Of a DNA stretch of 64,000 nucleotides, positions 3,789-23,391 are shown in pieces. Below the pieces are notes generated by a model. It was given only the letters and a program-made list of their open reading frames with translations. It was not told the DNA's origin and ran no database searches. This stretch comes from Candidatus Borrarchaeum weybense (GTDB lineage: Archaea > Asgardarchaeota > Sifarchaeia > Borrarchaeales > Borrarchaeaceae), in assembly GCA_019057385.1 (NCBI GenBank), contig JAHQJS010000006.1:613038-677037 (forward strand), in the 5' to 3' direction. Each line of letters starts with the position of its first letter. Position 1 is the stretch's first letter. A program made the translations under genes and the position numbers.

Positions 3789-4044
3789 TTCTCTTCTGCT
3801 AAATTGAAATCATTTAGTTTTTAATTCATGATATCAAAGGTACATAAGTTCCTAAAGATAAAAAATAATATCATTGCTAACTTCTCTAAAAGAAAAGTTT
3901 ACTTTGAATACAATTCATAACATTCTTATTTTGCATCTTTCATTGAGTTATTTGAAATATAAAACATAAAGTTCGTTCTTAGAATGAATTTAATCTCGAA
4001 AGTCTATGTCCCTTTTTTTAGATTAATTTACTTTCAATTACATA

Positions 4045-4056
4045 AAACTATATTTT
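4045..4056 (+). repeat. Candidate attL core AAACTATATTTT
   Basis: Same 12-mer at 63546-63557 just upstream of the integrase; AT-rich, so a chance match is possible. Confidence 0.45.
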
Positions 4057-4112
4057 AACCTTAATACTACTTCATGCTATCACATTCTTAGTCTCTGAAA
4101 ACTATTCCTTAA

Positions 4113-5241
4113 TACTTAGGTACTCAGGAACGGCTAATAAAACTTATATAGAAGTTCCTAAGCATACATTCTGCTCAAAAAACAAAATAGGAAAAAGAGG
4201 AAAAGGTTTCCATTTTGCGCTGGTGCCTTTCCCTCTTTGAAGGTAATCCCTATGGATTCTATTAGGAACTTTTCCGATAAAAAGTTTTCGCTCGCGGTTC
4301 ACGAAATTCTTTTGCAGTTGAAGTATAATTCGTATCCACACAATTATCTTGTTGCGAAAATTCAGGAAAGTCATGCTACTTTTTCAAGATCTCTTGTTGA
4401 AAAAGTGATACATTTTCTCTATTATAACGCGAAAAAATTAGGCAGAATTGTCATAGACTTTGAAGGGAAGGCTCTTCATTTCTATTACAATCTTGACATT
4501 TCTGAGGAAATTGCATTTCAGCGTGCAAAGAGTTTCATGGCAAATTACAGACTCTATCTTAAAAAGATGATTACGAATGACAAAAAGACAAATATTGTTG
4601 GCAGGATGGGTGAAGGAGCTGTAAGAGCTGTCTTACGGAAATTAGGTTTCACAGTCCTGCAACGAGTCAGAGCAGGGAAAGGTGATATTGACCTTATTGC
4701 AATGATTAAAAGTTTCAATTGGCGTATTTGCAAAGTAAAAGAATTCGTAATTGCTTTTGAAGTGAAGAATAGAGACAAAGAAGTAGAGTCATCTTGTCTT
4801 ACTAAATTTAATTATGCTTTAGATAAGTTTACTGCAAAAACAAACATCAAGATAGACCGAAAAATCTTAGTCGCCAAAAAATGTAGTTACAAGACGCAAA
4901 AGAGGAGTAATGGGGAGGGAATAGACATTGTTGAACTCATGCAAAAATATGTGCCGCATACTCCCTATGCAAAACCCTTTGGAAGCATATCAATCAAACA
5001 GTTTATGAGAAAAATTCTCAGGAAATTGATTAGTCTTTTTAGAGGTCTTACAGATCTCATCGAATATATTTATGCAAAAGGAATCATTTCAAACAGATTA
5101 GAACACTATAAGACTCTTCTTAATCAATTCGATTGGCTATTACTTGCTCAGTTTTTAAAAGATCATTCTCTATGTCCTGCAAAAATACGTGACTTCGTTT
5201 TAAAAATGAGGTTATCCGACTTGTTCCTGAGTACCTAAGTA
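4113..5241. repeat. 19-bp perfect inverted repeat (4113-4131 / 5223-5241) bracketing the endonuclease gene
   Basis: TACTTAGGTACTCAGGAAC versus GTTCCTGAGTACCTAAGTA. Confidence 0.9.
4237..5238 (+). CDS. PD-(D/E)XK restriction-endonuclease-like protein (Mrr-like catalytic domain)
   Basis: GEGAVRAVLRKLGF...GDIDLIA...FEVKN. Confidence 0.75.
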   Translation: MKVIPMDSIRNFSDKKFSLAVHEILLQLKYNSYPHNYLVAKIQESHATFSRSLVEKVIHFLYYNAKKLGRIVIDFEGKALHFYYNLDISEEIAFQRAKSFMANYRLYLKKMITNDKKTNIVGRMGEGAVRAVLRKLGFTVLQRVRAGKGDIDLIAMIKSFNWRICKVKEFVIAFEVKNRDKEVESSCLTKFNYALDKFTAKTNIKIDRKILVAKKCSYKTQKRSNGEGIDIVELMQKYVPHTPYAKPFGSISIKQFMRKILRKLISLFRGLTDLIEYIYAKGIISNRLEHYKTLLNQFDWLLLAQFLKDHSLCPAKIRDFVLKMRLSDLFLST

Positions 5242-5534
5242 CTTTCGTAGTGATCATAAGAAAAAACTATCACAAACTCATTACCTAAGTACTGAGGAAT
5301 ACATACCTTTATATAAGACTAAATCCCCATTTACCAATGTAAAAACTTGTGTGGTGGGATGACAAAGTGGGTGCCCTCAAATGTCCACGTTGCAATACGC
5401 AACTTTTCAAACAAAATGCTATTTATAGATGTCCTTGTTGTGGCTTTTGGGCTACGCATGAAGCACTTATAGCATCCCAAACCTCTTCTACTTTTATAAA
5501 AAATACCATAAAAGCAGTAGCATAAAAAAAAAGA

Positions 5535-5867
5535 TTATTTGAAAAGTTGAATAAGTGCAACGAATCTCTCTGTGACGTCTTTTCCTAATTTTGTAATAGT
5601 GTATTCCTCAAGGTTACGAGATTCATCGTAAACCTTTGCTTCTAAAACACCAAGTTCTACTAGAGAATCAATTCTACTACGAATTGTATTATAACTAAAT
5701 TTTCCAAATTCATTCTTAAACTCATGTAAAAGATCTGTGGTTCGCCAAGTCGTTTTCTTTTGAAACATCAAGAGCACTTCAACACTCTTTGATTTCTCGA
5801 AAGCATCTAACATTTGCATTGTTTTTTTGTTTTTGAGATCTGAAATGACTGACAATATCAACACCAA
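5535..5867 (-). CDS. Winged-helix transcription regulator (HxlR/ArsR-like), candidate repressor
   Basis: TIRSRIDSLVELGVLE...EYTITKLG; operator array upstream. Confidence 0.8.
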   Translation of the reverse strand: MVLILSVISDLKNKKTMQMLDAFEKSKSVEVLLMFQKKTTWRTTDLLHEFKNEFGKFSYNTIRSRIDSLVELGVLEAKVYDESRNLEEYTITKLGKDVTERFVALIQLFK

Positions 5868-5925
5868 CCAAAGTACCTAAGTAATAAGATATGATTTCCT
5901 CATACTAAAAACTACTTCATAAATC

Positions 5926-5981
5926 TTGTTATGACAGTTGTGATAACAAAATAAAGGTTTGGTCCTAAATTGTAATAACAA
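5926..5981. promoter_or_regulatory. Operator array, three TTGTNATNACAA-type boxes
   Basis: TTGTTATGACA, TTGTGATAACAA, TTGTAATAACAA; same layout at 26232-26319 (inverted) and 44941-45016. Confidence 0.8.
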
Positions 5982-5998
5982 CTTTATTCCTGGAATAC

Positions 5999-7312
5999 TT
6001 ACAGAAAATAAAGGTAGGCGAAGAATAATAGCCCTATTGTCGGTAAAATAAGAATAAATAGATTCATCGCTATTTTAATTATAGGCATTTTTTTGTAGAG
6101 TTGATAGATTGTAACAAAACATAGTAATACAATATTTAGAAGAGCACCAATTTTGAGGACCTGAACAAGCCGGGTGTGTGGAAGAAGTACTTTTGATTCA
6201 AATTTTTCTTTGAGGAACTGATAGGAGTTCCCTGATAACCTCTCAAAATTATAGATACTTACTCCATCGGCACTTAATCGAATGCTTTCAAGTTTTTGTT
6301 TCATTATGTTAATATCTTCAGGAATTATCGGCAAATATGTCGCCGAACGTAAGTCTATATTTCTTAGATAAGTGATAGTTTCTTGAAACGTCTTGAGATC
6401 GCCGTATTCCATCACCTTGTAAAAGTCCACAAAATTGTCCCATGAATCCCATTCCTGGAAGATTCCATATCCATCTGATCCATGGATACTTGGCCGCGTA
6501 AACACATTACATCCGATATATTTGAATTTGCTGTGGACTATTTTTGAAGCCTCTTTAACAAAGGTGGTGATGGTCTCAGTCATAAAGGTTTCCCATTTAG
6601 CCCACATTTGTGTATCTGCTTCATCAAAATCTAAAGGACTAACGCTGTAAGTTTCGGTGAATTTTTCTAAACTGTATGGATCATAGGACGGTTTATCTAA
6701 ATATCTGACGAAATCTAATATAATCCCGTCCACGCCTTTTGCAAGTATTTCTTCAATGATCGAAAAATAGAACTCACGGACTTCTGGAATCGCGGGTGAG
6801 AACCAATACTTGATCCACGAAGCTTGAGGAGTCACAGGATTGCCTTGTCTGTCCACTGCCCACCACTCACTATGGTTCTCACTACCCGTTCGTGAAGAAT
6901 AATCAATCCACAGGTCTACAATTGCATAGACTTTGAGTCCCTTTTCCTTTCCCTTTTGAATAAAATATTCCAGCACGTCAAAGTCATACGTAAAATCAGT
7001 GATAGAAATTTGACCTTGTGAAACTTCGCTGGGATAATACGTCAGAGATCCACCAACCGCTAAAGAAATTATGTTTGCGCCAAGTTGGTCAATTTGCCTA
7101 ATCTTGGCATCAATTTCTTCTTGAGTTTTATACTGACCGCTATCAAGTTTGATAGTAACGATTCTGCCTTCCTCATATTTGTTCTCTGCCGTTGTGATAT
7201 TGAAAGCAATTTGTATGAAAGCAGAACTGCAAATGATTACGAGCAATACTATGAATGCAATTCTCAAGTCGTCAGGTTTTGCCATTATTTTTTTCCTCTT
7301 CTTTTTTTTCAA
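5999..7312 (-). CDS. Membrane-anchored glycoside hydrolase-like protein (GHL10/DUF187-type TIM barrel)
   Basis: FDVLEYFI...GLKVYA, WFSPAIPEVREFY, GVDGIILDFVRY, QEWDSW; N- and C-terminal TM segments. Confidence 0.8.
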   Translation of the reverse strand: MKKKKRKKIMAKPDDLRIAFIVLLVIICSSAFIQIAFNITTAENKYEEGRIVTIKLDSGQYKTQEEIDAKIRQIDQLGANIISLAVGGSLTYYPSEVSQGQISITDFTYDFDVLEYFIQKGKEKGLKVYAIVDLWIDYSSRTGSENHSEWWAVDRQGNPVTPQASWIKYWFSPAIPEVREFYFSIIEEILAKGVDGIILDFVRYLDKPSYDPYSLEKFTETYSVSPLDFDEADTQMWAKWETFMTETITTFVKEASKIVHSKFKYIGCNVFTRPSIHGSDGYGIFQEWDSWDNFVDFYKVMEYGDLKTFQETITYLRNIDLRSATYLPIIPEDINIMKQKLESIRLSADGVSIYNFERLSGNSYQFLKEKFESKVLLPHTRLVQVLKIGALLNIVLLCFVTIYQLYKKMPIIKIAMNLFILILPTIGLLFFAYLYFL

Positions 7313-7394
7313 TTTCCTGTCTGATAACTTCTAAAACAGAACCACACAAGAAAAGTCCTCCTGATTATACTTAGGTAATGAAAAAAATAATTGA

Positions 7395-7640
7395 CTAGAG
7401 TTCAACAGGCAGTCGACTAACAATGTCCGCAATTGCTTTGGTATTCTTCTGTATGCTAGTTAACGTATGTTTCATCTTTGCTTCATGTTGTCCTATCTTA
7501 GAACACGCTTCTTTGTCGCCATGTACCTTGCATAAATGAACAACTTCCCTGAGTTCAGTTTGATTCTCAGCATACTCTTCTAAGTCTGCAACAAGAAACA
7601 AAATCCAACTATCGAGATTCAAAGGCATTGTTTCATGCAC
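7395..7640 (-). CDS. Small hypothetical protein
   Basis: 81-aa ORF with AAGGAG RBS, in the minus-strand gene run. Confidence 0.65.
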   Translation of the reverse strand: MHETMPLNLDSWILFLVADLEEYAENQTELREVVHLCKVHGDKEACSKIGQHEAKMKHTLTSIQKNTKAIADIVSRLPVEL

Positions 7641-7697
7641 ACTCCTTCTTCTTTTCTTTTTGATTATTTAAGTAGTCTAAAAGGCGACTTCTACTCA

Positions 7698-8378
7698 TTA
7701 TTTGGAGAACGATTTTTCATAATAGCTCTTCTTCCTTTTCTTGTGAATCAACGGGATCATAAGAATAAGTACAGTAATGATTACGCCGATCATAAGAATA
7801 AGTAGTTCATAACCACCGATGTAAAAGTATACATACCAAGACTCAGGATCCCAGAGTGAACTTCCCTCTTTTACTTGCGTCACAACTATTCTTTGGAAAT
7901 AACTCTCTTCTACTGTTGTCACGTAACTAATCGAATCGTGGATTCGTTGAAGCCTGAGATGGTTATTTGTATCTGAGAAATCCCATCGAATTATGTACAG
8001 ATTGATTTCAATGTAATTGAAAATGATTTCAACAGTCAGTACTACATGATGTCTCTGGTCGCCATTGAACTCATCTATGTCATATACAAGTTTTTGTGAA
8101 GTAGAAGTTACTTGAAACAAGTCAACTTTTTCTGAATTAAAGTCGAGCGTGTGTTGTTTTAAGCCGTTAGAATTGAACTCTTGAATGGCAACGTATTCGA
8201 GGTCATGTTTATTATTGATATTTTTGTACCAATAACGGAAGTGTACTTTATCGTTTCGGTAACTAAGACATATCTCCTCATTACTGATAGTATCAGTCGC
8301 GGCGACTGTTGGTTGAACAAGAACACCGACTAAGACAAGTGCTACAATTAGCGCACACATTGCTTGTTTATGATTCAT
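7698..8378 (-). CDS. Secreted, C-terminally anchored surface protein
   Basis: Probable start MNHKQAMCALIVALVLVGVLVQPTVAA (signal peptide); C-terminal TM and KKRKK tail. Confidence 0.75.
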   Translation of the reverse strand: MNHKQAMCALIVALVLVGVLVQPTVAATDTISNEEICLSYRNDKVHFRYWYKNINNKHDLEYVAIQEFNSNGLKQHTLDFNSEKVDLFQVTSTSQKLVYDIDEFNGDQRHHVVLTVEIIFNYIEINLYIIRWDFSDTNNHLRLQRIHDSISYVTTVEESYFQRIVVTQVKEGSSLWDPESWYVYFYIGGYELLILMIGVIITVLILMIPLIHKKRKKSYYEKSFSK

Positions 8379-8385
8379 TTTTTTC

Positions 8386-8700
8386 TTACTTCCCAATAAT
8401 TCTTTTAATGGTCGGAAAACCAAGTAGCGCAATACTTAGAAGTAAGCATAATGCCGCAACGACTAAGATTGCAATGTAAGGAAACCCTAGATACAATAGA
8501 TTTCCAACGATATTTTCTGAAGATGTAGTAAAGTATTGAAGAACATAGTCTTTAGCCTTAGTGACCCACAAATTAGCACCAACTGCATTAGCGATCCAAC
8601 CTCCAAGTGACCAGATCATACCTGATGCGATGAATAAAAACGCAACACCAACGAGATACCGCAATTTAGAAACTACCTTTTTGACCATTTTTCCTTTCAC
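8386..8700 (-). CDS. Small two-TM membrane protein
   Basis: Two hydrophobic helices and basic termini. Confidence 0.75.
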   Translation of the reverse strand: MKGKMVKKVVSKLRYLVGVAFLFIASGMIWSLGGWIANAVGANLWVTKAKDYVLQYFTTSSENIVGNLLYLGFPYIAILVVAALCLLLSIALLGFPTIKRIIGK

Positions 8701-8803
8701 CTTTTCTAATTACTTAGGTACTTTCGTAATATCTGTCACGCCAGGAATTGACGCAACACACGATTTATGAAAGCATTTGGGGATTTAGGCGGTGCAAATC
8801 TAT

Positions 8804-9550
8804 TCAGGGGGACATCAGCGCAAACATTTTCGAGAGTATATTATTTAATCTATGAACCCAGATTGACGCATAGAGTCCATACTTTGTTCTGATCGCAGCA
8901 AGTTCTATTCCTGCTACAACTGTAAACATGAGTAAAATTGCATTGAAGGCGTACGCTACACTATGCGCAATTCCAAAGAATAGTGTCGATGAAATCACGT
9001 ACGCAATCGCATACGCCGTTGTTTCATCAAACTTAAGAAATCGTTGCAGAACCCACTTGATAGGCTCAGGGTACGCATACCTGAAAAAAAGTTCTTCAGT
9101 CGGAGCGATCAAACAAACATGGAACATTATACTGACAAAAAACCCTTCAATTGGAGATAAGGTTTGCGTGCTTTCTAATAACAAGATTTCTGACGTTGGG
9201 GATACAGAAATCCCATAAAGCGGGCTTTCTGTGTCTACTATTGACAGACCAAGAGTGTTTTGAAAAGGTGCGAGCACATAACTAAAGATCACGTTCGTAA
9301 ATATCACAATAGTGACGCCTAAAGTAATACCCACGATAAAATTGGCTTTCTTTTCTCGCACACTTTTGTAAGAATAAAATGCATATACTGCGGCAACCGC
9401 TGAAAAGATAATCGCATAACTATAAAAAAGAAAAATTTGGAGATAGGTTAAGACGGCGAAACCAATTGTAAACATCAGTATCCCCATAGCGATAACGTAA
9501 TCTGCCGCACTGATTACAATATCTTCAGTAATAGCCTCTCTAGTTATCAA
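8804..9550 (-). CDS. CPBP/Abi (CAAX protease-like) intramembrane glutamic protease
   Basis: APTEELFFR (EExxxR), FFGIAH (FxxxH), WVHRLNN (HxxxN). Confidence 0.9.
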   Translation of the reverse strand: MITREAITEDIVISAADYVIAMGILMFTIGFAVLTYLQIFLFYSYAIIFSAVAAVYAFYSYKSVREKKANFIVGITLGVTIVIFTNVIFSYVLAPFQNTLGLSIVDTESPLYGISVSPTSEILLLESTQTLSPIEGFFVSIMFHVCLIAPTEELFFRYAYPEPIKWVLQRFLKFDETTAYAIAYVISSTLFFGIAHSVAYAFNAILLMFTVVAGIELAAIRTKYGLYASIWVHRLNNILSKMFALMSP

Positions 9551-12500
9551 CGAAATCTCCTCCTGTCACCTTTGAAGTACCTAAGCAGTATGATTCCAAA
9601 GATTACGATGAATGTAAAGAACCCATAGACACCGAATTGAGTGAGCATTTGTACTTCTACTGGTGCCTCTGCTACATTTAAAGCACCGATAGATCCTGCA
9701 ACAGCAATCAATAGCGAGAATAGACCCCCACCTGAAATAAGTCCGATGTGCCATTGGAAGTTGTGCTTCCTGTAAGACTCATAAACAGGACCCGCCTTAG
9801 CGACATGACTCCACAGGATCACAACAATTGCAACTGTGATTGGGACAAACGCAAATACAGGACTTGCTAAGTTAATTGCTGGTTTTCTAAATGTTACAGA
9901 CCATTCAGATATGTCGGTAAGTGACAAAACTCCTCCAAGTTGAGGTAAAAACAAGAATATAGCAAGTGTTACTCCAGCTGCACCGAAGATCGCTGTGTAA
10001 ACATAGAACGCATATTTCTGATAAAATTTCTTAACACGCGATACGTCTTTCGTACTTTGAACTACAACTATGCCTATTATTGAAATACTTAAAGCGTAGA
10101 TAAAAGGCTCTATTGTAAGCGTGTAAGTCTTTTCTTTGACATATCCCACAAGATACAGTGTTTGATCGGGTTCTATATTGATGCCATAAATGCTAATTGT
10201 TCCTTCGTAATCATTAGGCATAAATTCAACTGAATATCCGCTTTCTTCATTACTTAAGTAGTCTAAAAGAGTTGCACTTGCAGCAGAGGATATTTCGTTC
10301 TGTAATTTGCTGTCAGTGTATATTTTCCATGATTTTATGCTGTCTGTAGTGTAACCCGCCCAATATAGTTTTCGTATTGAAGGCAGGTCGATTCCAATAA
10401 TAGAGACATTCTCTCGTGCTATTTGAGTGTCTATATTCATCGTATAGACAGCTTTGTTATTATCAGCGTTTACCACAGCGGGACTAGAAACCTTTGGTTC
10501 AGTTTCATAGAAATAGATTTTGAAGGAAGCGTCTTCGGTAGGTGCTTCATCAAATTCAAGTGTGAGTTTCCACTTAGATCCTTCTGCTTTAAACTTTAAG
10601 TTAGTCACATTCTTTGTGCTTACAGCAACAGCAGTAACTAAGTCAAAGTCGTCACCTAGTTTTTCCTTGAATGAATTGCTTAACGTCTTGGTATAGACCA
10701 ATTGTGATTCGTGAATCGTTGCAGTGCACCAAAACATAAGATCTTCTGTGACGTTTCCACACTTTACTTCTTCAGGTTCGTGAAGTGAACCTAATTGAAG
10801 TCCATTCTCAGGGGTAGAATCTGCGAAGAATGTTATTGTTTCTTTTTCTGTGAGCCCATTAGTATTTTCTGCTCTGATCTGTAGTTTATAATCATCATCT
10901 TCATCAAAAAACGTGCTGTTTACCTCAAAAGAGCCCTCATAAACTCCTGTAGTAGTATTTCCTGATTCTAGGCTCATAGTTTGCCAGGCAGAATAAACCT
11001 CGTATTGCGTAATTTGTGATTCATAAGTGTATCTAAATTTCACTGAGGAGATAGTAGCAGCTTCTGATGATAATTGAGTAGCAGTACATTTTACTGTTAC
11101 AGTTTCAAAGTCTACTCTCTCGTTATGTGAGGGATCTACATTAGTAATAGAAACACCCTGATCGCATAGCCAATTACTAAAACTTAGAGTAGTGTTATGC
11201 CCTTCAAAATCCTCAGAAATAATAAAATCTAAGTCAGTATCACTACCTAAATTTACCTCAGAAATCTCCCAATGATCTGTATCCCATGTTGCCGTGAAAG
11301 AATCTCCATCTGTGGCAGATATATCTCCTGAATCAATGCCTGTAGTGTATGAAGGTGTGATAGTACCAGATTGTAAGTTTTCTGATGCTACCGCAAAAGT
11401 TCTTGAACTATCAAAGTAAATATTGTCAATGTATGCCTTTAAATTGATCTGTGAGGAATTATAATAGAATCCAATGTAATCAATATCATTCCAATTAGGA
11501 GAGCCCTGCTCACTCCATCCTGAACTACCAGAGCCTAACTCTATAGTTTCTACCTGCCATGTATTAGGAGTAGTTATGTCTACTGTTCGATAAAAATAAT
11601 TAGAATCACTATCATAAAGTCTTAACTCCAGAAATGAATGAGATTTAAGTTTAACAATATGTGCATCAGCATAATCAACATTATTTATCGGAAAATATAT
11701 ATAATCATCCGTTGGCTGAATAAACGAACTTGTTGGGCAACCTTCACCTGATCCGTATGTTACAAGATCTGTAAAGGTATCCTCTTTTATGTCATAATAT
11801 CCCACTCCACCAACGTACCAACCGTAGTATATAATATTGTTATCGTCATCGTAATATACACTTTCAAGTGTATAGGGATCTGAATAACCAATATAACCAA
11901 GATCATTAGTTGAATCCGTTGTTACGTTTAACTGATAAAGGTGCCCTGTAATTGATCTTCCAAAAAGAATTAAATCAGTACCATTCATTGTAGGACTAAG
12001 AGCTGTATCGCCAAGCGAACTAACTACTGTCTGTTCGTGTGACGTGAGATTCATTTTTTGAATCCCAACAGAGGCACCGCCAATATAAAGAAAATCTCCA
12101 ACATTAACTAAAGTTTGTGGGTCCTCATCGTTAGTGCCAACGGTAGAATACCACTCTTCTGCCCATTCATCAGTTTGAGCGTCAAAAGTTTTCCAACCCA
12201 TTTTAGCAGCTTCTCTCCAAAACGAGTAAAAAATATGTGATCCATTATACCAACAAGAAGATACTGCCCAAGTTGATGAAGTAAAAATGTCACCAACCAA
12301 TTCTATTGTACCATCAGAGATATCTAATTTACAAACTTGATGAGAAAAAGTTGGAGTGGTATTATAAGCTATAAAATAAATGAATTCATTATCAACATTT
12401 ATTAAACTTTGAATCGAGTCATAATGTGTTTCAAGTTCAGAGGGCAAAGTAACCTCAGTAACGGTATCTGTAGAGATGTTTAATTTGAATAGATTACAAA

Positions 12501-13194
12501 CATCTGTTAGTTCTCTATCTCCAAAATAAACAGAACCATCTCCATCATAAGCCATTCCTGTAAAGGAAGCATCTGATACTGATTTTGTGCCCGTCATAAT
12601 ACCAATATCTTCTATCTCAAAATAATAGCCTCCACTTTGATAGACTGCAAAGTTGAGATATTCATAGTAATTCTCACAATCTAATGAAAGGTTTTTAGAA
12701 GCATTATAATAAGCCACTCGATTATCTTCACCTGCTGTAGCAGTTGCATTAATCGAATAACTGCCTGTGTATTTTATATCTCCTTCATCAGATAACGTGA
12801 AATTATCACTTCCCCATGAACTTGCAGTATTTTCAGTCCACGAATCACCGCCTTCAGGAATTGCATAATAGTTGAGATCAGAAGGAGGATCACCGCCACC
12901 GCCATCGCCATTAGACAGAGTACCGATAGTAGGACCACTTGTTTTTTTTTCGTCTGGGATTTCAGGAGATTCTATATGTATATCTGGTTCTTTGGTATTA
13001 TGAAGTGTGGCCTGTGATGAGTCTGATATTTTCATAGCCACTTGTATGGCGAAAAGACACAGGCAAAAGATGATAAGCACTGATGTAATGTGACGGGCTT
13101 TAGGTCTGGGAACTAACCCTTTTATGATTTCTTTGGCTACTAATGGAACTAATTGTGTTTTCTTACGTTTAATCGGTTTACGTTTTATCCTCAT
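9547..13194 (-). CDS. 1215-aa membrane-anchored surface glycoprotein, candidate spike/adhesin
   Basis: N-terminal TM, acidic S/T/Y-rich beta-propeller-like repeats, many N-x-S/T sequons, several C-terminal TM helices. Confidence 0.8.
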   Translation of the reverse strand: MRIKRKPIKRKKTQLVPLVAKEIIKGLVPRPKARHITSVLIIFCLCLFAIQVAMKISDSSQATLHNTKEPDIHIESPEIPDEKKTSGPTIGTLSNGDGGGGDPPSDLNYYAIPEGGDSWTENTASSWGSDNFTLSDEGDIKYTGSYSINATATAGEDNRVAYYNASKNLSLDCENYYEYLNFAVYQSGGYYFEIEDIGIMTGTKSVSDASFTGMAYDGDGSVYFGDRELTDVCNLFKLNISTDTVTEVTLPSELETHYDSIQSLINVDNEFIYFIAYNTTPTFSHQVCKLDISDGTIELVGDIFTSSTWAVSSCWYNGSHIFYSFWREAAKMGWKTFDAQTDEWAEEWYSTVGTNDEDPQTLVNVGDFLYIGGASVGIQKMNLTSHEQTVVSSLGDTALSPTMNGTDLILFGRSITGHLYQLNVTTDSTNDLGYIGYSDPYTLESVYYDDDNNIIYYGWYVGGVGYYDIKEDTFTDLVTYGSGEGCPTSSFIQPTDDYIYFPINNVDYADAHIVKLKSHSFLELRLYDSDSNYFYRTVDITTPNTWQVETIELGSGSSGWSEQGSPNWNDIDYIGFYYNSSQINLKAYIDNIYFDSSRTFAVASENLQSGTITPSYTTGIDSGDISATDGDSFTATWDTDHWEISEVNLGSDTDLDFIISEDFEGHNTTLSFSNWLCDQGVSITNVDPSHNERVDFETVTVKCTATQLSSEAATISSVKFRYTYESQITQYEVYSAWQTMSLESGNTTTGVYEGSFEVNSTFFDEDDDYKLQIRAENTNGLTEKETITFFADSTPENGLQLGSLHEPEEVKCGNVTEDLMFWCTATIHESQLVYTKTLSNSFKEKLGDDFDLVTAVAVSTKNVTNLKFKAEGSKWKLTLEFDEAPTEDASFKIYFYETEPKVSSPAVVNADNNKAVYTMNIDTQIARENVSIIGIDLPSIRKLYWAGYTTDSIKSWKIYTDSKLQNEISSAASATLLDYLSNEESGYSVEFMPNDYEGTISIYGINIEPDQTLYLVGYVKEKTYTLTIEPFIYALSISIIGIVVVQSTKDVSRVKKFYQKYAFYVYTAIFGAAGVTLAIFLFLPQLGGVLSLTDISEWSVTFRKPAINLASPVFAFVPITVAIVVILWSHVAKAGPVYESYRKHNFQWHIGLISGGGLFSLLIAVAGSIGALNVAEAPVEVQMLTQFGVYGFFTFIVIFGIILLRYFKGDRRRFR

Positions 13195-13227
13195 CTACCT
13201 ACCTCACGATAACTGTCAATAGTTAAA

Positions 13228-13887
13228 TCACTCCATTTCCTTTCGGAGAAATACCAGATACATCCCTACTAGATTTAGTGCGACGAGTTTCAAAATAGCA
13301 ACAATTTCCGCTACAACGGCGTTAGCACCATACGCAACGGTAAATATTTGTTCAGGAGGAACTAAGTCTCCAAGTAGGAGCCAGAATGTCACACCAACGG
13401 TCAGAAAGATTATACCCACCGCAACAAGTTTTCTTCCGAAGAATACCAGAACCATACTTGCCCCAAAGACGAGTAAGAGCAGTGGAAAAAGCGTAGAATT
13501 CAATAATGATGAGGGGACGTCCACAAACGCCAATGAACGTGCGACTTGTTGTTCCTGATAGCCGAACAAACTTGCTATCTGTAAATCCAAGTCTAAGACA
13601 ACAAGTACGCCTAACATCATACCAATGAGATTGAGTAACATTCCGAGTGGACTTTGTTTTGAAAAATTGTAAAAAGTCCGTACCACCGTTCCCGTGATAA
13701 AGAGACCGATCATACCGTAGAACGAGATGTAAAACGGTATAAAGCGCACTACATAGAGTAATATGTCTATTACTGCTATAAGAATCAAGATTTCAAAGAA
13801 CGCTTTTTTGTAATCTCTTGTGAATATGCCGATGCGTGTGACTTCTAAGGCATTACTTATTTTGCGTTGTATTCTTGCCATTTCCAA
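13228..13887 (-). CDS. Polytopic membrane protein, putative virion membrane protein
   Basis: About six TM helices; C-terminal part resembles 15217-15948. Confidence 0.75.
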   Translation of the reverse strand: MEMARIQRKISNALEVTRIGIFTRDYKKAFFEILILIAVIDILLYVVRFIPFYISFYGMIGLFITGTVVRTFYNFSKQSPLGMLLNLIGMMLGVLVVLDLDLQIASLFGYQEQQVARSLAFVDVPSSLLNSTLFPLLLLVFGASMVLVFFGRKLVAVGIIFLTVGVTFWLLLGDLVPPEQIFTVAYGANAVVAEIVAILKLVALNLVGMYLVFLRKEME

Positions 13888-13945
13888 TTTTCTCCATTTT
13901 TTCTGTTTCTAATTACTTAGGTAGTTTGGATCAATGAGGCACAAT

Positions 13946-15187
13946 TTATCGAAATTTGAGGATTTTCCCTATTCTCTTTGCGCCTCTTGAGATACGCTCT
14001 CTCATAGTTCTTGAAGAACTACCAGAAGAGCCACTTCTTACCATAAAAGCAAGTGAACTGCCACTTGCCTTGCGCTCGGGGGGATTTTGTGCCTTTTTTG
14101 TCACTACATTCTTTATCCCTGCACCGAGTTTCCCAGCGGCATCATTTATTCTTTCAGACACAACAGAACGCAAACCATACTTGTCCGTGTAACTTATCGC
14201 CATGATGAGCCCCATACAGATCAGAGTGGGTATTCCAAACGCTGTAAACCATTCAAGGAGTGCGAAAATTAATGCTACGTATTGCGATACAGGAGGAAAC
14301 CAATCCGCCCACTCGATCCCAGCAGTAAAAGTTGCAGGTGCAGCAAGCATTATGACAATGCCAGCAATAAAGAATGAACCACTAATTTTTGCGAGTGTTT
14401 CAAGCAGATCAGTGCCTATGACAAAACTCAATGCAAAGAATATAAACGCAAGAAGGACAGTTACAAATGCGATGAACTCATGTACTTGGTCTGGGTGTAC
14501 GATCCACTCGAAAAAGTTTGGATAACCTTTCCATTCGTAGCCCGCACCAGGACTTTGATCTTCGTCTTCTACGTCTTCTGGTAAGCCTCTCCCTCCTTCG
14601 CCTTCCTCAGCGTTCCATTGAAAATTCTCATACGTTTCAGAACTACCGTACCAAAGATAGATTTTCCCGTAAAAGTCAGCGTTCTTCAAATCTTTATCTT
14701 GAAAATAGAGAACTGCCGTGAAGCTACCGTCATCAATTTTAATTTTATCACTTGTGTAGAGACTATTGTCGTCTATATCGAATATTTGTATTTGATACTC
14801 CGCGCCTCCATCGTTATCTTTTGGTAACTCATTGTCGTCAATTGAATCAACCAATTCTGGAGTCACGTCAGATACGGTAACCGTGTAAATAGTTCCCACT
14901 TGACTTATATCAAAATCAAGTTCTACTTCTGTGTTTGTACTTGAGATAGAGAGGTCCATCATGGACATTTTATTTGTGCCAATAAAAACACCAAATAGAA
15001 TCGCGTAGCCAACACAAAGGATCGCTAAATACTTATAGCCCTTTTGTGTTGCTAAAAGAACTGCTAAATAAAAAAAACCGAGAAATCCAATAAGAAAAAT
15101 GTATTGCCTAAAGATCCCAAGAACGATAGAAGGCACTATAATCGTAGAAACAACTGCTGTTGAGGTCCAGTTTGCTGTACGTTTCAT
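13946..15187 (-). CDS. Membrane protein with acidic extracellular domain and basic tail
   Basis: TM segments flanking an acidic beta-rich domain; R/K-rich C-terminus. Confidence 0.8.
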   Translation of the reverse strand: MKRTANWTSTAVVSTIIVPSIVLGIFRQYIFLIGFLGFFYLAVLLATQKGYKYLAILCVGYAILFGVFIGTNKMSMMDLSISSTNTEVELDFDISQVGTIYTVTVSDVTPELVDSIDDNELPKDNDGGAEYQIQIFDIDDNSLYTSDKIKIDDGSFTAVLYFQDKDLKNADFYGKIYLWYGSSETYENFQWNAEEGEGGRGLPEDVEDEDQSPGAGYEWKGYPNFFEWIVHPDQVHEFIAFVTVLLAFIFFALSFVIGTDLLETLAKISGSFFIAGIVIMLAAPATFTAGIEWADWFPPVSQYVALIFALLEWFTAFGIPTLICMGLIMAISYTDKYGLRSVVSERINDAAGKLGAGIKNVVTKKAQNPPERKASGSSLAFMVRSGSSGSSSRTMRERISRGAKRIGKILKFR

Positions 15188-15216
15188 AGATTATAAGCCC
15201 CCACTATCACTATTGG

Positions 15217-15948
15217 TTATCTTGTGGCGTTAATAATGGCTTTTCCGAGTCCTATCGGAACTACTGCAAAGAGTCCAACTGTAAACGCTTCGATCCAACC
15301 TGCCATTTCGCCAAGATTCAATGGTGCCCCAACAAACGTGTCGTCTGGCGGCATCCAGCCGAAAAACAGACTAACCACGATGATGATGAAGGGGATCATG
15401 GCCATTCCTGCGGCTTTTCGTCTACCTGTTGCGTATGCAAAAAGTGCCGTCATGCCACATATCGCACCGATCATCATTTTAGGCGCGGTCAAAATCGTTT
15501 GTATAATGTCAGTTTCGGTGTAAGTGGCGGAAGATAACGGTGTGAGGCTCAGATATGCCATAGCATTAGAGTCGGTCATGGACATTGTTGCGAGTGCCCC
15601 AAGTCCATTGGCTACTATGAACGTCAGAAGAAGAATGATTGCAAGATTAGCAACGATATGATAGCCCCGCAAATACTGAAAGTTCAGAATCATCTCAAAT
15701 ATAATCGCAACTATTCCGAACGCATAAAACGTCTTGAGGAATGTTCCAAGCGAAATACCAGACAAGAAACTGATGTCAGCAAATATTGTCACCAAGAATA
15801 AAGTGATCACAACAATTACAGCTAGTGCGTAGAAATAAAACACATTATTAACCATGTTTTGGATTTCTGCTGTTCTTCTGCTAGAAAAGACCTTTCTAGT
15901 AAATTTCTTAAAAGATATACCAAATGCCATTTTCCAAATTTCCTCCAT
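15217..15948 (-). CDS. Polytopic membrane protein, putative virion membrane protein
   Basis: About six TM helices; likely start at ATG 15930 after GGAGG. Confidence 0.75.
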   Translation of the reverse strand: MEEIWKMAFGISFKKFTRKVFSSRRTAEIQNMVNNVFYFYALAVIVVITLFLVTIFADISFLSGISLGTFLKTFYAFGIVAIIFEMILNFQYLRGYHIVANLAIILLLTFIVANGLGALATMSMTDSNAMAYLSLTPLSSATYTETDIIQTILTAPKMMIGAICGMTALFAYATGRRKAAGMAMIPFIIIVVSLFFGWMPPDDTFVGAPLNLGEMAGWIEAFTVGLFAVVPIGLGKAIINATR

Positions 15949-16012
15949 TTTTTTTCAAATTACTTAAGTAGTCGGGTACGGTTCAGATAAGGCACAAAAA
16001 AGCGTGCTAAAC

Positions 16013-16420
16013 TCATTTTCTACGGGATTCTAGTAGATCTGCGATGATAGCAGAAAACACAGTCGAAAACGCGGCGGCAACACTTGTAATGACATCGAAT
16101 CCAAAGAAACTGCCTGTGGTTGCGCTACCTCCACTGATTAATACAATTAATGCACCGATGAAAAAGCCGATAGCCGCACCTATTGCTAAAACTAAGATCT
16201 GGTGAAAATACGCTAAAAATAATGATTTTACAAGGAGTCGTTGTAATCCTGCGCCGAGTCCTGCCACATTGTCCATCTTAAATGCCAGCAAGAGTGTGAC
16301 AAAACCAATTGCCATAATAAGTATACTAGCAAAAAGATAAGGCGTAATAAATATGGCTAAAATACCGCAAGTTATCAGTACTGTCGCAATTATGTAGGTA
16401 ACGCCGCGTAGTGCAGTCAT
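16013..16420 (-). CDS. Small four-TM hydrophobic protein
   Basis: 135 aa, almost entirely hydrophobic; GGAGG RBS. Confidence 0.75.
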   Translation of the reverse strand: MTALRGVTYIIATVLITCGILAIFITPYLFASILIMAIGFVTLLLAFKMDNVAGLGAGLQRLLVKSLFLAYFHQILVLAIGAAIGFFIGALIVLISGGSATTGSFFGFDVITSVAAAFSTVFSAIIADLLESRRK

Positions 16421-16435
16421 AACATATTGAACCTC

Positions 16436-16654
16436 CTATACGTCTTTTGGGAGGTTCTTCTGTTCTTTGATACGTGCGATCTCTACGTCAAGTGGGCTAT
16501 CAAAAGTACCCATTTCCTCGAGCACTTTTGCGAATTCGTCTTTGGGATAACATTTTTCCCTACCGTCCTCTGTTATGAAACAAATCTGATCACCGCGTTC
16601 AACGATGTCTCTGCCGTGACCGTTATGAGTTTTGTCTCCTCGCCATTGAACCAA
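16436..16654 (-). CDS. Small hypothetical protein
   Basis: 72 aa, AGGAGG RBS before TTG. Confidence 0.65.
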   Translation of the reverse strand: MVQWRGDKTHNGHGRDIVERGDQICFITEDGREKCYPKDEFAKVLEEMGTFDSPLDVEIARIKEQKNLPKDV

Positions 16655-16725
16655 CTTTTAGACCTCCTAATTTAAAGTAAAAAAAGGGTGCGGGGTGCTC
16701 TGTATCTAGTGAAGTCAAATTCGGC

Positions 16726-16971
16726 TTATTTGCAACCAAATTCGTCAGAAACTTCTTTTGGAAGACCTTCTATACTGCAAATACCATTTTTCCAAGCGTC
16801 AGGTCCAGCAGTTTTCAGACCTTTAGCGTAGTTTCTGTCCATCTTTGCGGTGTCGGTGGCATTGATGTCGTTAAGGAAGTCCTCTTCGGTAACATTGGCG
16901 ACATTATCTTTCCACTTTGCAATCGTGGATTTTTTTGTCATTTTTGCCTTCCAAGGGCCAGAAATTACCAT
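16726..16971 (-). CDS. Small protein with basic N-terminus, paralog 2; candidate nucleocapsid protein
   Basis: Aligns with 17026-17298: IS.PWK.KMTK.STI.KWK.NV..V.EEDF...I.ATD...MD.N.A.GL...W...IC.I.GLP..V.D.FGC. Confidence 0.8.
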   Translation of the reverse strand: MVISGPWKAKMTKKSTIAKWKDNVANVTEEDFLNDINATDTAKMDRNYAKGLKTAGPDAWKNGICSIEGLPKEVSDEFGCK

Positions 16972-17025
16972 AGTTTTTCCTCCACATTTTTCGTTTTTTT
17001 TAAAACCAAACCAAAAGAAGTAACG

Positions 17026-17298
17026 CTACCAGGTCCTTTTGACATCGATGCAACCAAATGCGTCTCTGACGTCCTGTGGTAATCCGTCTATTCGACAGAT
17101 CGCAGCTGCCCATGGGGCACCATATTCTGATTTATGTACTTTGATAAGTCCGTCTGCCCAATTCTTGTCCATTTCGACAGAATCAGTGGCAGCTATACTG
17201 ACGTTAAAGTCCTCTTCAGAAACCGCATTGACATTTTCCTTCCACTTTTTGATAGTAGAAGACTTAGTCATTTTGTTCTTCCAAGGTTCTGAAATCAT
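17026..17298 (-). CDS. Small protein with basic N-terminus, paralog 1; candidate nucleocapsid protein
   Basis: First gene of the leftward module, TATA-like TTTATATA upstream; paralog of 16726-16971. Confidence 0.8.
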   Translation of the reverse strand: MISEPWKNKMTKSSTIKKWKENVNAVSEEDFNVSIAATDSVEMDKNWADGLIKVHKSEYGAPWAAAICRIDGLPQDVRDAFGCIDVKRTW

Positions 17299-17401
17299 AG
17301 AATCAAATCTTTGGTATTGGTTATTGGTTTTTGATACTCATGTTTTTATATATAAATTGTGAGGATTACTTATACAGGAAACATACATTTTCCGCTATGG
17401 G

Positions 17402-17614
17402 GTGTTTATGAGGTTGCAATTGTATGGAATACCAACTTTAACGATAGTGAACGAAGACCTACTTTATTTACCCGCTGAACTTAGAAAACGATATAAGCTT
17501 ACAAAAAATGAAAAAATCCTCGCTGTCACACAGATGGATGATGACGGCTTTTTTGTTCGAGTCATTGATAAACAACAAAGAGAGACTATAGCGAATTTAC
17601 CTACTTTGGGGTGA
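17402..17614 (+). CDS. AbrB/SpoVT-like DNA-binding protein
   Basis: LYLPAELRKRYKLTKNEKI. Confidence 0.65.
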   Translation: MFMRLQLYGIPTLTIVNEDLLYLPAELRKRYKLTKNEKILAVTQMDDDGFFVRVIDKQQRETIANLPTLG

Positions 17615-17618
17615 GACT

Positions 17619-18401
17619 ATGGCTTCGGAAACTAAGAGTGAGGCTCCAAAAACAGAAGCCATCGCGTCTGATGATGTTAAACAGCCGACACAACCTAAAA
17701 TGATCGATGACTCGCTTCCACTCTGGGAAAGAATGCGTAAAGCCGCTTTCAACTATATTAATATGATGGTAAGTCTGATTAAACCTTCGGCTATTGATCC
17801 CGATTTTGCCGATGCGTGTCAGAAATTGACGTATATTGACGCAATGACTGTTTTTTCGACGTATATGTATGCTACCGCACAAATTTGCGCTGAAGCACTT
17901 GGTATTCTTGAAACATCGGCACGTGCAAGAGAAATTATCAAACGAGAGCCACAGCAAATTCATCCTATCATGCGAGCATTGGGTAGACTTGCCCAAATAT
18001 CGAAACAAATTGATTACGCCAGCAGTGCGGTAATGGGTGTATATCCCCATCAAATGAAACAACTATTAAATGAAGTTCATTACGGTCTTTTCGCAGGTTC
18101 AGGAACGATCCGATGTATTGAAATGAATGGCAAAGGACGTGAAGTAACAGAAGAGAAAAAAAAGATCCCTGACTCCGCGTTCCAACTGCTTAAAATGTTA
18201 GTTGAACGTGATGAAAACGAACAAGGATTATTACAAAGCGATTTGAAAGATTTAATGACGTACAACGAAAGAACTATCCGACAACAAGTTTCGTTCCTCT
18301 TGGAAGAGGGATGCATAGATAGAGATAGAGAGAGTCGTACCTTTCGGCTTTCCCTCACTGATAAGGGAAAATTGGTATATGACAACGGAGGGCATCTATA
18401 G
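17619..18401 (+). CDS. Protein with C-terminal MarR-like winged helix
   Basis: QSDLKDLMTYNERTIRQQVSFLLEEGCIDR...LSLTDKG. Confidence 0.8.
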   Translation: MASETKSEAPKTEAIASDDVKQPTQPKMIDDSLPLWERMRKAAFNYINMMVSLIKPSAIDPDFADACQKLTYIDAMTVFSTYMYATAQICAEALGILETSARAREIIKREPQQIHPIMRALGRLAQISKQIDYASSAVMGVYPHQMKQLLNEVHYGLFAGSGTIRCIEMNGKGREVTEEKKKIPDSAFQLLKMLVERDENEQGLLQSDLKDLMTYNERTIRQQVSFLLEEGCIDRDRESRTFRLSLTDKGKLVYDNGGHL

Positions 18402-18506
18402 GTGTCGTATATCGCAATTTTGCTTTTGACAGGGGTAGGTTGTGCACCTTCATTCGTGACTACCTAAGTATTCATGTAGGAATTGGTAGATTGGTGAGCG
18501 AAAAGT

Positions 18507-18905
18507 ATGACACGAAAATCATTATTTTTTAGAGGCACACTCAAGTACTATTTTCATCACAGCTGCGAACACTGCATGCAGTTTATCGAGTCTGCCGCTT
18601 TCACTGATGTAAAAACATACTGCCGCAATAACAAAATCAGGTTCATTATGTTGGACATAGGGAAAGAATCACATCTTATGGAGTTCCTGGCCGCAGGATT
18701 CGAGGGAACTCCAACACTAATTCTTGGCGATGAGACAGGTCTCCCAATTGTAGTCGAAGGGTTCAAACCTCAGAGTTCAGAAGAGATATTATCGATCTTG
18801 AAGGGAAGTGGTATCTCAGAAACAGTTCACGAAATTCAAAAATCCCGTATTTTAGAGGGATTAAAAAAAGATTTTTGGACACAATTCGCTAATAAAAAAC
18901 TTTAG
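18507..18905 (+). CDS. Thioredoxin-fold protein
   Basis: CEHC motif and GTPTLIL cis-Pro loop. Confidence 0.8.
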   Translation: MTRKSLFFRGTLKYYFHHSCEHCMQFIESAAFTDVKTYCRNNKIRFIMLDIGKESHLMEFLAAGFEGTPTLILGDETGLPIVVEGFKPQSSEEILSILKGSGISETVHEIQKSRILEGLKKDFWTQFANKKL

Positions 18906-18918
18906 GAGGAATGTAAAC

Positions 18919-19731
18919 GTGCAATTTATTACAATGACCCCACAACAGTTCTATACATTATGCGGGGTCTTGGTAGGAATACCAACGGTTATTGCGGTAT
19001 TAATTTACCTAAGAATGAAATTTAGGGGAGATCCTCTCCTAATACAGTACAGAAATGAACATGGCTTATGTGAAACCGATTGGACTACCTTAATCGAGTA
19101 CAGTCCAAACGGGAAAAAATTAAAACTCAGACGTGGATGGCGTGTAGTGGAATATTTACTAAGTAGAGGAACTTTAGGTAAATTTCTTGAAGAAGATAAA
19201 TACGGAAATAAGTTCTTGGAAGTTGCTGACATCTACGAAAAAGACGACACAAATATAATTGAGCCGTGGGTGGAAATCAAAAATAAATCATTATTGGCAA
19301 AGAATGAACTCGCGGTGCATAAACTTGAGTCTATTTATTCGAGGGAGATCGCTAATGCCAATCAGGAAATCATGAATGAACGTAAAAAGAGATTAGAGGC
19401 GGGACGGAAATTGACAAAAGAACTAAATGAACAACAAACAATGATCGACAAAGTGAACATTGACTCGATAACAATGCCGAGAAAACTTGTTGCCACATAC
19501 TTAGCTGGAAAAGTAGGGACTGTAGACTTGGAACACATCAAATCGACAGTCGTAGATAAACTCTTGCAGGATACGAAGGGAAGTTTTATAGAAGTCATTG
19601 AGTCATTAGATAAACGCATAGAACTCGTTGGCGTCAGTTTAAAACAGTTCTCAAAACAATTCGTACCTGTCATAAATGCAATGGCGAATAAACTCAATAT
19701 CAAACCTGTAAAAGTAATAGAACAGTCATAA
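18919..19731 (+). CDS. N-terminally anchored coiled-coil membrane protein
   Basis: Single TM then heptad-rich region; AGGAGG RBS. Confidence 0.75.
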   Translation: MQFITMTPQQFYTLCGVLVGIPTVIAVLIYLRMKFRGDPLLIQYRNEHGLCETDWTTLIEYSPNGKKLKLRRGWRVVEYLLSRGTLGKFLEEDKYGNKFLEVADIYEKDDTNIIEPWVEIKNKSLLAKNELAVHKLESIYSREIANANQEIMNERKKRLEAGRKLTKELNEQQTMIDKVNIDSITMPRKLVATYLAGKVGTVDLEHIKSTVVDKLLQDTKGSFIEVIESLDKRIELVGVSLKQFSKQFVPVINAMANKLNIKPVKVIEQS

Positions 19732-20220
19732 TTAATACTGTAGCTCGAGATTTACTTTTAAATCCCTTATTATTTTTAGATTTTCAAGTGTGTTGTCGTT
19801 AAATTCGTGGATTACCGCTATCTGTTTCGCTCGATTTTTTTCATTCTCTTCTGTAGCAAGTACTTTGAGAATTGCCTCTATTTCTTTCATATTTTTTGCA
19901 ATAACACGGAAATACGGCTTAAGTTCCTTAGAAGCAACACCTTTTACTTGTTCCTCACTACTTACGTAATATTCTAATCGTTTTTTACCTCTTTCAGTTA
20001 TAATGTACTCGTATATCGGTTTCTTGCTTTCTTCAATGTGTTTTTTATCACGATCGACAAGCCCTTGTCTATAGCACCGAAGTAGTATCACACAAACCAA
20101 CTCCCGGTCCTTCCCTAAGGCATCACTTATCACCTTTGATGTGTTGTTTCCTTTACTTACTTCCTTCAATATTCTTTGTTTGACTTCAGAGAAGCCTGTA
20201 AGCGTTTTTGACATATTCAT
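19732..20220 (-). CDS. Winged-helix transcription regulator
   Basis: ISDALGKDRELVCVILLRCYRQGLVDR...YIITERG; divergent from operon 1. Confidence 0.8.
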   Translation of the reverse strand: MNMSKTLTGFSEVKQRILKEVSKGNNTSKVISDALGKDRELVCVILLRCYRQGLVDRDKKHIEESKKPIYEYIITERGKKRLEYYVSSEEQVKGVASKELKPYFRVIAKNMKEIEAILKVLATEENEKNRAKQIAVIHEFNDNTLENLKIIRDLKVNLELQY

Positions 20221-20320
20221 CTCCAGAGAGGGGATTTTAGTTTTTAGATAAGAATATGAGAGTACTGCTATTTAAATTTAACGCTAGCGTTTAAATAAGT
20301 CAATTTGCGGAGAAATTTAC

Positions 20321-23356: not shown

Positions 23357-23391
23357 TTCTTTTTTGTGGAGCTTGGCTCTAAGGTGGATTT

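Follow-up and report, generated by a model that had tools for sequence, protein, structure and literature searches.

The 64,000-nucleotide (nt) stretch of Candidatus Borrarchaeum weybense DNA analyzed here, called the window throughout, contains an integrated mobile element and, within it, a membrane-rich gene block at positions 5999–17298 of the minus strand. This block consists of 13 co-oriented and tightly packed open reading frames (ORFs) that cover ~95% of the span and make up ~19% of the element, and their products measure, in the order of transcription, 90, 81, 72, 135, 243, 413, 219, 1215, 248, 104, 244, 81 and 437 amino acids (aa). A first-pass annotation of the same DNA had described a co-oriented 11-kb block with two small paralogs, polytopic membrane proteins, a 1215-aa protein, a CPBP protease, an anchored protein and a hydrolase, and all of these were found where it had placed them, the paralogy of the two small ORFs included (Table 1). 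The block probably serves the spread of the element or a display at the cell surface.

Membrane proteins and enzymes of the block

Membrane proteins are encoded by nine of the 11 block ORFs that were kept by the filter, compared with 5 of the 75 in the remaining window (Fisher P = 2e-7; transmembrane (TM) segments were called with a crude hydropathy scan). Searches in Pfam, PHROGs, NCBIfam and PADLOC yielded family matches for two of the block proteins only, the hydrolase and the protease, and for the others nothing meaningful was retrieved from PHROGs, NCBIfam or PADLOC, nor from Pfam at relaxed thresholds.

The largest product, the 1215-aa candidate surface glycoprotein, begins with a basic cytoplasmic N-terminus and one N-terminal TM segment (signal or anchor), followed by an acidic ectodomain of ~960 aa (isoelectric point (pI) 4.1) that contains all 17 N-x-S/T sequons of the protein. 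The chain ends in an anchor of five TM helices, which puts the basic C-terminus inside the cell. Three parts can be distinguished along this architecture, namely a variable, repeat-bearing head (residues ~60–520), a stalk (residues 520–1020) and the five-helix C-terminal anchor. The alignment with the ortholog from a second copy of the block, a protein of 1375 aa with an overall identity of 65.5%, revealed a marked gradient along the molecule. Residues 765–1215, which comprise the membrane-proximal stalk and the anchor, are 96–100% identical, the identity drops to ~68% in residues 522–765, and residues 1–520 retain only 20–25% identity, with an indel of ~160 aa and a rearranged domain order. 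Judged from this alignment, a swapped distal head on a conserved stalk and anchor is the pattern of a receptor-binding protein. The heads of both copies carry about seven repeats of ~45 aa with a beta-strand-like pattern, which on inspection might build a beta-propeller; a hidden Markov model (HMM) made from the head repeats recovered the ortholog head weakly, with six periodic matches and a whole-sequence E of 6.5. No homolog of the giant protein was seen in 400 Asgard genomes, IMG/VR, PDB sequences or the ESM Atlas, and its conserved C-terminal half, compared with a set of 5.8 billion proteins, matched the ortholog alone.

Two enzymes accompany this protein. The 437-aa product matches the GHL10 profile (PF02638) along residues 57–276 with 52 bits (gathering cut-off 27.9; E 7.4e-14), and additionally DUF4015 and GHL6, and on the strength of this profile match over the TIM-barrel domain it is assigned to the GHL10 family. 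It possesses an N-terminal anchor and two C-terminal TM segments, and its matches among PDB sequences are weak, to GH114 and an exosialidase. Among proteins of near length (240–765 aa) its sole close relative is the ortholog of the second copy, which is 87% identical. The 248-aa product, encoded by a gene that begins within the last 4 nt of the giant gene, matches the Rce1-like/CPBP profile (PF02517) with 35.2 bits (cut-off 22.4) and, weakly, the myxosortase-core (E 7.7e-4). The motifs EExxxR, FxxxH and HxxxN are intact (EELFFR at 152, FGIAH at 192 and HRLNN at 233) and, together with the profile, place it in the CPBP/Rce1-like family. With respect to the two families at large, both proteins are here membrane-anchored and located on a mobile element.

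The other membrane proteins have features of their own. The 413-aa protein is built of three TM segments, an acidic outer loop of 158 aa (pI 4.1), three further TM segments and a Ser/Gly-rich, basic cytoplasmic tail of 88 aa (pI 11.5). In the 244-aa protein a signal-like N-terminus precedes an ectodomain of ~150 aa, a C-terminal TM segment and a basic tail. Relatives of these and other block proteins are scarce. An exhaustive phmmer search of 1.84 billion representatives with the 413-aa protein returned the self-match only, the homology search with the 90-aa paralog A gave a single outside match, a 93% identical copy, and tblastn with the 104- and 135-aa proteins against 50,697 phage and archaeal-virus records found nothing. 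The comparison of the 243-aa protein with the ESM Atlas gave scores of 0.84 or lower, which are not usable.

The host element and its second copy

The block is expressed, to judge from its upstream region, from a promoter that belongs to the element. A signature resembling a transcription factor B recognition element and TATA box (BRE/TATA; CACAATTTATATA) is placed ~50 nt upstream of the first block gene. Perfect matches to CACAAWWTATATA occur exactly three times in the window, and the other two, at 20321 and 26341, head plus-strand replication operons. Since the third copy heads the block, the block is one of the three main operons of the element and not host DNA, and is thus a core part of the element.

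A second motif shared with the rest of the element is the palindrome TACYTARGTA, of which 40 copies are found in 4113–62103 where 0.36 are expected. Throughout the genome (4.18 Mb) there are 48 copies, so that 40 of the 48 lie within the element. The block holds six of these 40, mostly just upstream of genes. Most copies are intergenic and follow a T-tract, 10–25 nt ahead of the next start codon, as seen at 5874, 7368, 8711, 13914, 15961, 21222 and 38270/38297. The palindrome is probably an operator or a processing site for a regulator encoded by the element, the candidates being the HxlR-like protein next to the block and a winged helix-turn-helix protein at 17619–18401.

A search with the hydrolase gene led to a 27.8-kb contig of a second Borrarchaeum metagenome-assembled genome (MAG; GCA_019058535.1), which carries the whole block in the same gene order, again beside ilvC, plus the divergent regulatory genes. 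The nearest database copy is labelled Candidatus Borrarchaeum sp., and short assemblies from two other read sets contain the promoter-proximal genes (from the paralogs to the first polytopic proteins) together with the divergent regulators. The block was not found in four same-genus genomes or in 400 Asgard genomes. At the aa level, orthologs in the second MAG are 100% identical for the 72-, 135- and 243-aa proteins, 99.6% for the CPBP protease, ~94.6–96% for the 413-, 244-, 104- and 81-aa proteins, 87% for the GHL10 hydrolase and 85% for the 219-aa protein. The ratio of nonsynonymous to synonymous substitution rates (dN/dS) in this comparison is 0.15–0.27 for most block genes, which are therefore real and under purifying selection. 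At the DNA level, a tract of 5.5 kb (14.8–20.35 kb; 14800–20347) is 100% identical between the two copies (comparison with L026, contig JAHPYX010000244.1 of GCA_019058535.1), whereas the host ilvC flank on the same contig is 95.6% identical and the other parts of the block 73–97%. The element has therefore moved or recombined after the divergence of the hosts, and the recombination mosaic, barring assembly artefacts, implies a recent exchange between strains.

The limits of the element can be traced on both sides. On the left, the window opens with cellular genes (ilvB, ilvC), and synteny with the same-genus genomes G306 and G308 breaks at 1997, past ilvC, and restarts at 63609, the 3' end of a radical-SAM gene; the interval 1998–63608 is therefore an inserted or variable island, at whose right end a tyrosine integrase is encoded. 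In the search for attachment (att) sites no convincing direct repeat was found, the only candidate being the 12-mer AAACTATATTTT at 4045–4056 and 63546–63557, whose right copy lies 62 nt beyond the start of the integrase gene. As a candidate att core it is weak, and it might be due to chance in AT-rich DNA. Neither tRNA genes nor Rfam families were detected in the window.

An extra segment of 2 kb (1996–4015), missing from the second copy, separates ilvC from the shared element and contains two ORFs, one of 313 aa that belongs to no known family and one of 137 aa with a Zn ribbon, whose TackOD1 match stays below threshold (22.7 bits, cut-off 32). In the second copy the element begins ~100 bp from the ilvC flank, and in G308 the ilvC site is occupied by one gene for a 723-aa leucine-rich repeat protein instead. 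The region between ilvC and the radical-SAM gene is an insertion hotspot.

Beyond the block, the island encodes two MCM-type helicases, a primase-like protein and a serine recombinase, in addition to the replication genes given in Table 1, and as accessory genes a type I-like restriction-modification (R-M) pair, nucleases (one of them Mrr-like) and a HIT protein. The 572-aa VCP-like protein has a single D2-like AAA domain behind an N-terminal region of 300 aa without known family, and among the plausible genes of the window it alone has a canonical Walker A motif. It may act in replication, in host takeover or in the handling of membrane proteins. The 603-aa protein, possibly Topo-mini-A-like according to its PHROG match, had no relative in the 400 Asgard genomes or IMG/VR. 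For a large number of island ORFs no family was detected, among them those of 391, 394 and 413 aa and a cluster at 48–50 kb. Adjoining the R-M genes, the segment ~39700–40550 matches several short same-genus contigs (G305, also G307 and G308) at 69–75% identity and has the appearance of repeated or mobile sequence. Just downstream of the serine recombinase gene, two small minus-strand genes are flanked by a 75-nt direct repeat (49490–49564 and 50817–50891) that is 85% identical and contains the palindrome; this repeat might stem from the duplication of a promoter unit or mark the two ends of a nested mini-element. Outside the block, the island resembles a large integrative plasmid as much as a provirus.

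Table 1. Coordinates of the block genes and of other features of the element within the window
Feature	Position	Strand	Basis
Integrated mobile element, ~59.6 kb, carrying the block	4016..63608	.	Homology to second copy (L025) begins at 4016
110-aa HxlR-like winged-helix regulator, co-oriented, just downstream of the block	5535..5867	-	PF01638; conserved in second copy (L025)
437-aa membrane-anchored GHL10-type hydrolase (predicted)	5999..7312	-	PF02638
81-aa soluble protein, no known family	7395..7640	-	ORF list
244-aa type-I-like membrane protein	7698..8432	-	Ortholog 96% identical, dN/dS 0.17
104-aa basic protein, two hydrophobic helices	8386..8700	-	Hydropathy
248-aa CPBP (Rce1-like) glutamic intramembrane protease (predicted)	8804..9550	-	PF02517
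1215-aa surface glycoprotein candidate	9547..13194	-	Hydropathy and ortholog comparison
219-aa polytopic membrane protein, ~4 TM segments	13228..13887	-	Ortholog 85% identical, dN/dS 0.17
413-aa polytopic membrane protein, 6 TM segments	13946..15187	-	Ortholog 94.6% identical, dN/dS 0.19
243-aa polytopic membrane protein, ~4 TM segments	15217..15948	-	100% identical in second copy
135-aa protein, 4 TM segments	16013..16420	-	100% identical in second copy
72-aa acidic soluble protein, no known family	16436..16654	-	100% identical in second copy
81-aa soluble paralog B	16726..16971	-	Paralogy with the 90-aa protein
90-aa soluble paralog A; basic N-terminus, conserved Cys pair	17026..17298	-	54% identity to paralog B, E 1e-27
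BRE/TATA-like signature promoter	17349..17361	-	~50 nt upstream of first block gene
PCNA with C-terminal C2H2 zinc finger fusion	24834-25814	+	Profile matches
572-aa VCP/Cdc48-like AAA ATPase, in replication operon	27743-29461	+	E 1e-45 to VAT and p97
603-aa protein, C-terminal Zn ribbon	33677-35488	+	PHROG 'DNA topoisomerase' match, E 5e-7
Tyrosine integrase, right element end	62309..63484	-	PF00589; 124 nt from synteny break at 63609

Possible roles of the block

A core operon with nine membrane proteins, a head swap, a protease and a hydrolase, and without a DNA motor, is best fitted by a module that presents a receptor-binding complex on the host membrane for the dissemination of the element. 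We tentatively read the block, with less than even confidence, as the core surface and membrane 'late' operon of the element, building a capsid-less, membrane-bounded carrier that could be either a pleomorphic virion or a plasmid vesicle. Membrane-bounded carriers can dispense with a capsid. In this scenario an assembly embedded in the host membrane would move the element from cell to cell inside the carrier, the four polytopic proteins and the small two-TM protein forming its membrane scaffold. The 1215-aa glycoprotein would act as an exchangeable receptor-binding spike, the translationally coupled CPBP protease would mature or release this spike, and the membrane-anchored GHL10 hydrolase would cleave glycans of the cell surface as the element enters or leaves a cell. 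In the 413-aa protein, the basic cytoplasmic tail might tether DNA or cargo, and the two small paralogs may be soluble adaptors or regulators. We infer every one of these functional roles, and likewise the existence of any particle. A bolder version, in which the block is a complete particle-forming module and represents a new family of capsid-less, membrane-bounded elements without a packaging ATPase, the first such for Asgard archaea, with a swappable spike head that sets the host range and a dedicated CPBP protease that matures the spike, is doubtful.

No capsid, portal, terminase, FtsK/HerA or VirB4 match was obtained from Pfam, PHROGs or NCBIfam for the block and the larger island ORFs (~50), in line with the first-pass annotation, which had recognized none of them; with Pfam and PHROGs, this includes HK97 and jelly-roll (DJR/SJR) capsid proteins and A32/FtsK-type packaging ATPases. 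Several observations weigh against a membrane-bounded carrier. No relative among virion, vesicle or fusion proteins was detected for any block or island protein. An ATPase for morphogenesis or packaging is a general feature of spindle-shaped viruses, pleolipoviruses and pR1SE-like plasmids; a Walker A scan found no NTPase in the block, and the only ATPase candidate is the VCP-like AAA protein of the replication operon. Nothing speaks for excision, a free circular form or particles. The 48 spacers of the genome's own CRISPR array (contig C4:148434-152094, 37-nt repeat, spacers of 38–46 nt) gave zero matches to the window, and the short DNA matches in relatives are not located in arrays. Structure prediction was of little help: the AlphaFold2 model of the giant head, with a predicted local distance difference test (pLDDT) score of 34.5, was unusable and, as the repeat HMM was weak too, the propeller is kept as a conjecture, while the model of paralog A is all-alpha but weak (pLDDT 62.7) and retrieved nothing from BFVD at E <= 0.001. 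The full copies are just two, which restricts the comparative inference, and the R-M, nuclease and other accessory genes of the island leave room for the block as cargo.

The first-pass annotation had proposed the morphogenesis module of a virus or a vesicle-borne element, with a hydrolase that could act on S-layer glycans. The location of the block on a mobile element, the lack of known capsid, packaging and type IV secretion system (T4SS) genes and a giant protein that varies like a receptor-binding protein support the proposal in part, but neither a virion-protein homolog nor a packaging or assembly ATPase came to light, and a virion-like module is possible as one of several live readings. 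One of the others is that the block is accessory cargo for remodelling the surface, in which an adhesin, a hydrolase and an 'immunity-type' CPBP protease would act in the exclusion of superinfection, in biofilm formation or in binding to partner cells. Proteases of the CPBP/Abi group frequently serve in immunity or exclusion, variable adhesin heads are found in cellular surface proteins too, a transfer or packaging motor is absent, and the island bears further accessory genes (R-M, Mrr-like nuclease, HIT protein). However, of the three signature promoters of the element one belongs to the block, which takes 19% of the element; the one other full copy retains its genes one by one, with purifying selection acting on them, and four orphan polytopic proteins with three or four small soluble ones are ill-suited to a simple adhesin cassette. 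We regard such cargo as only slightly less likely than the carrier. A host cellular operon was rejected as a candidate, given the motifs that the block has in common with the element and its absence from same-genus genomes.

Transfer by contact, without any particle, is considered unlikely. In such a mechanism the adhesin and the hydrolase would join cells and the membrane proteins would form a site of fusion or a bridge; contact or fusion transfer has been proposed for archaeal elements that carry fusexins. The set of many membrane proteins, a glycan hydrolase and a variable adhesin would fit it, and the element was recently exchanged between strains. A like proposal exists for the Atabeyarchaeia plasmid with its 7 TM proteins and CAAX-like protease (PMC11529989). 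Against it, a HAP2/fusexin domain was not found by Pfam or PDB sequence search (neither the giant nor the 244-aa protein has a HAP2/GCS1 Pfam match, and the phmmer matches of the giant protein to PDB chains are irrelevant), nor were a VirB4, HerA or FtsK motor, a relaxase or a coupling protein.

A classical conjugation or DNA-import system (T4SS-like, Ced or Ted) that has diverged past recognition is extremely improbable and was rejected as unlikely, because no DNA-translocating ATPase is present. The polytopic and two-TM proteins could mimic VirB6-like, VirB3-like or pilin-like parts, and a wall or glycan hydrolase is a usual T4SS accessory. To our knowledge, all known conjugation and DNA-import machines require a VirB4/HerA-type ATPase; no VirB4/TrbE/CedB/TedB-type ATPase, coupling protein or relaxase was found in the 64-kb window, whose sole Walker A protein is VCP-like, and VirD4, relaxase and VirB6/TrbL gave no Pfam or NCBIfam matches in the island. 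A match to a T4SS or to an ordinary cellular complex, which the first-pass annotation had named as evidence to the contrary, was looked for and not found. It is very improbable, finally, that the block is the late module of a conventional capsid virus whose capsid and packaging genes hide among the unannotated island ORFs. Many of these ORFs lack a detectable family, and proteins of Asgard viruses are often past sequence detection (Medvedeva et al., bioRxiv 10.1101/2021.07.29.453957); on the other hand, the HK97 and double jelly-roll (DJR) capsids, portals and terminases of known Asgard viruses are recognizable by profile methods in the literature, while Pfam and PHROGs are blank here and no second P-loop ATPase exists.

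With a near-complete genome, the locus offers a well-bounded example for the question of how large capsid-less Asgard elements travel, and its orphan operon of 13 genes, wired to the promoter of the element, provides a candidate determinant of host range in the head-swapped giant protein and two enzymes that can be assayed. If vesicles or enveloped particles form, the lineage nearest to eukaryotes would gain a further mode of gene transfer, one new to it, with a bearing on ideas about membrane trafficking and the origin of viruses. If the block is only surface cargo, it would still describe a mobile element that remodels the Asgard cell surface.

Relation to known systems

The viruses known from Asgard archaea are of tailed, jelly-roll and spindle type, and a few unclassified elements have been described besides them; the spindle-shaped and pleomorphic viruses of archaea spread by budding without lysis. 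The morphogenetic block of His1 (annotation of AF191796) comprises a small two-TM protein, several proteins with 2–3 TM segments and large proteins with a signal or an anchor, without a classical capsid fold, and the likeness to the present block is one of layout only. With its two hydrophobic helices, the 104-aa protein is a candidate for the spindle type of major capsid protein (~80–100 aa, two such helices), but its alignment with His1 VP21 and SSV1 VP3 by hhalign gave a probability of 0.1%, with low power given two sequences per side. With respect to the spindle-shaped viruses (Halspiviridae, Fuselloviridae and wyrdviruses, His1 and SSV1 among them) and Pleolipoviridae, the element is 3–6 times larger and no B251- or VP8-type ATPase was found: the island lacks an SSV1 B251-type or pI-like AAA+ ATPase, its sole AAA protein being VCP/Cdc48-like, and among the block proteins PHROGs and Pfam revealed no VP4-type spike, VP3-type membrane protein or VP8-like NTPase.

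The pR1SE-like haloarchaeal plasmids called apHPVs, of ~50 kb and with MCM or Cdc6 replication, spread in plasmid vesicles, in which the orphan proteins of their core cluster are detected (PMC10818511). Their ten core genes include ORF6, an S8 serine protease (ORF7) and a VirB4/HerA-like ATPase (ORF25), and in ORF6, the largest core protein, a conserved C-terminus follows a highly variable N-terminus that often forms a beta-propeller (PMC10818511). By analogy, and compared by description, the giant protein of the block likewise combines a variable head with a conserved C-terminus, with a protease gene adjoining. In contrast to the apHPVs, whose hosts are Halobacteria and to which the block has no known sequence similarity, the protease here is of the CPBP type and no such ATPase was found; Pfam and PHROGs detected neither an S8 peptidase nor a VirB4/HerA-like ATPase.

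Within the Asgard archaea, the 'enigmatic' mobile genetic elements (MGEs) 10H_0, 7H_42 and Ga0114923_10000127 measure 44–85 kb and encode PCNA, Topo mini-A and many Zn-finger proteins, with no identifiable capsid, and whether they are viruses or plasmids was left open (Medvedeva et al., bioRxiv 10.1101/2021.07.29.453957). The island, a possible counterpart by host and overall gene content, has a PCNA-C2H2 fusion, MCM and no capsid match, its evidence of a topoisomerase being the PHROG match of the 603-aa protein, and differs from them in its Sifarchaeia host, its integrated state and a membrane operon that has no described counterpart there. No sequence link to these MGEs emerged through the 603-aa protein (IMG/VR) or the search of 400 Asgard genomes. 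A plasmid of Atabeyarchaeia of 20.8 kb encodes 7 TM proteins and a CAAX-like protease. In the 'Guacar' MGE-9917 the TM proteins number at least 14, two of them orphan giants (1402 and 1202 aa), and neither element could be assigned to the viruses or the plasmids (Valentin-Alvarado et al. 2024, PMC11529989). Compared by description, both are Asgard elements rich in TM proteins like the one that carries the block, but they are circular, 20–26 kb in size and from another Asgard class.

Membership in the virus families, the T4SS/Ced/Ted systems, the apHPVs and the fusexin elements fails on each defining gene tested, and the resemblances described above would concern how the block may work and not its assignment to a family. 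The block stands out in that a transfer or packaging ATPase was not found and that its giant protein is head-swapped, and it is a sequence-orphan variant among the large capsid-less archaeal and Asgard MGEs with membrane-rich modules.

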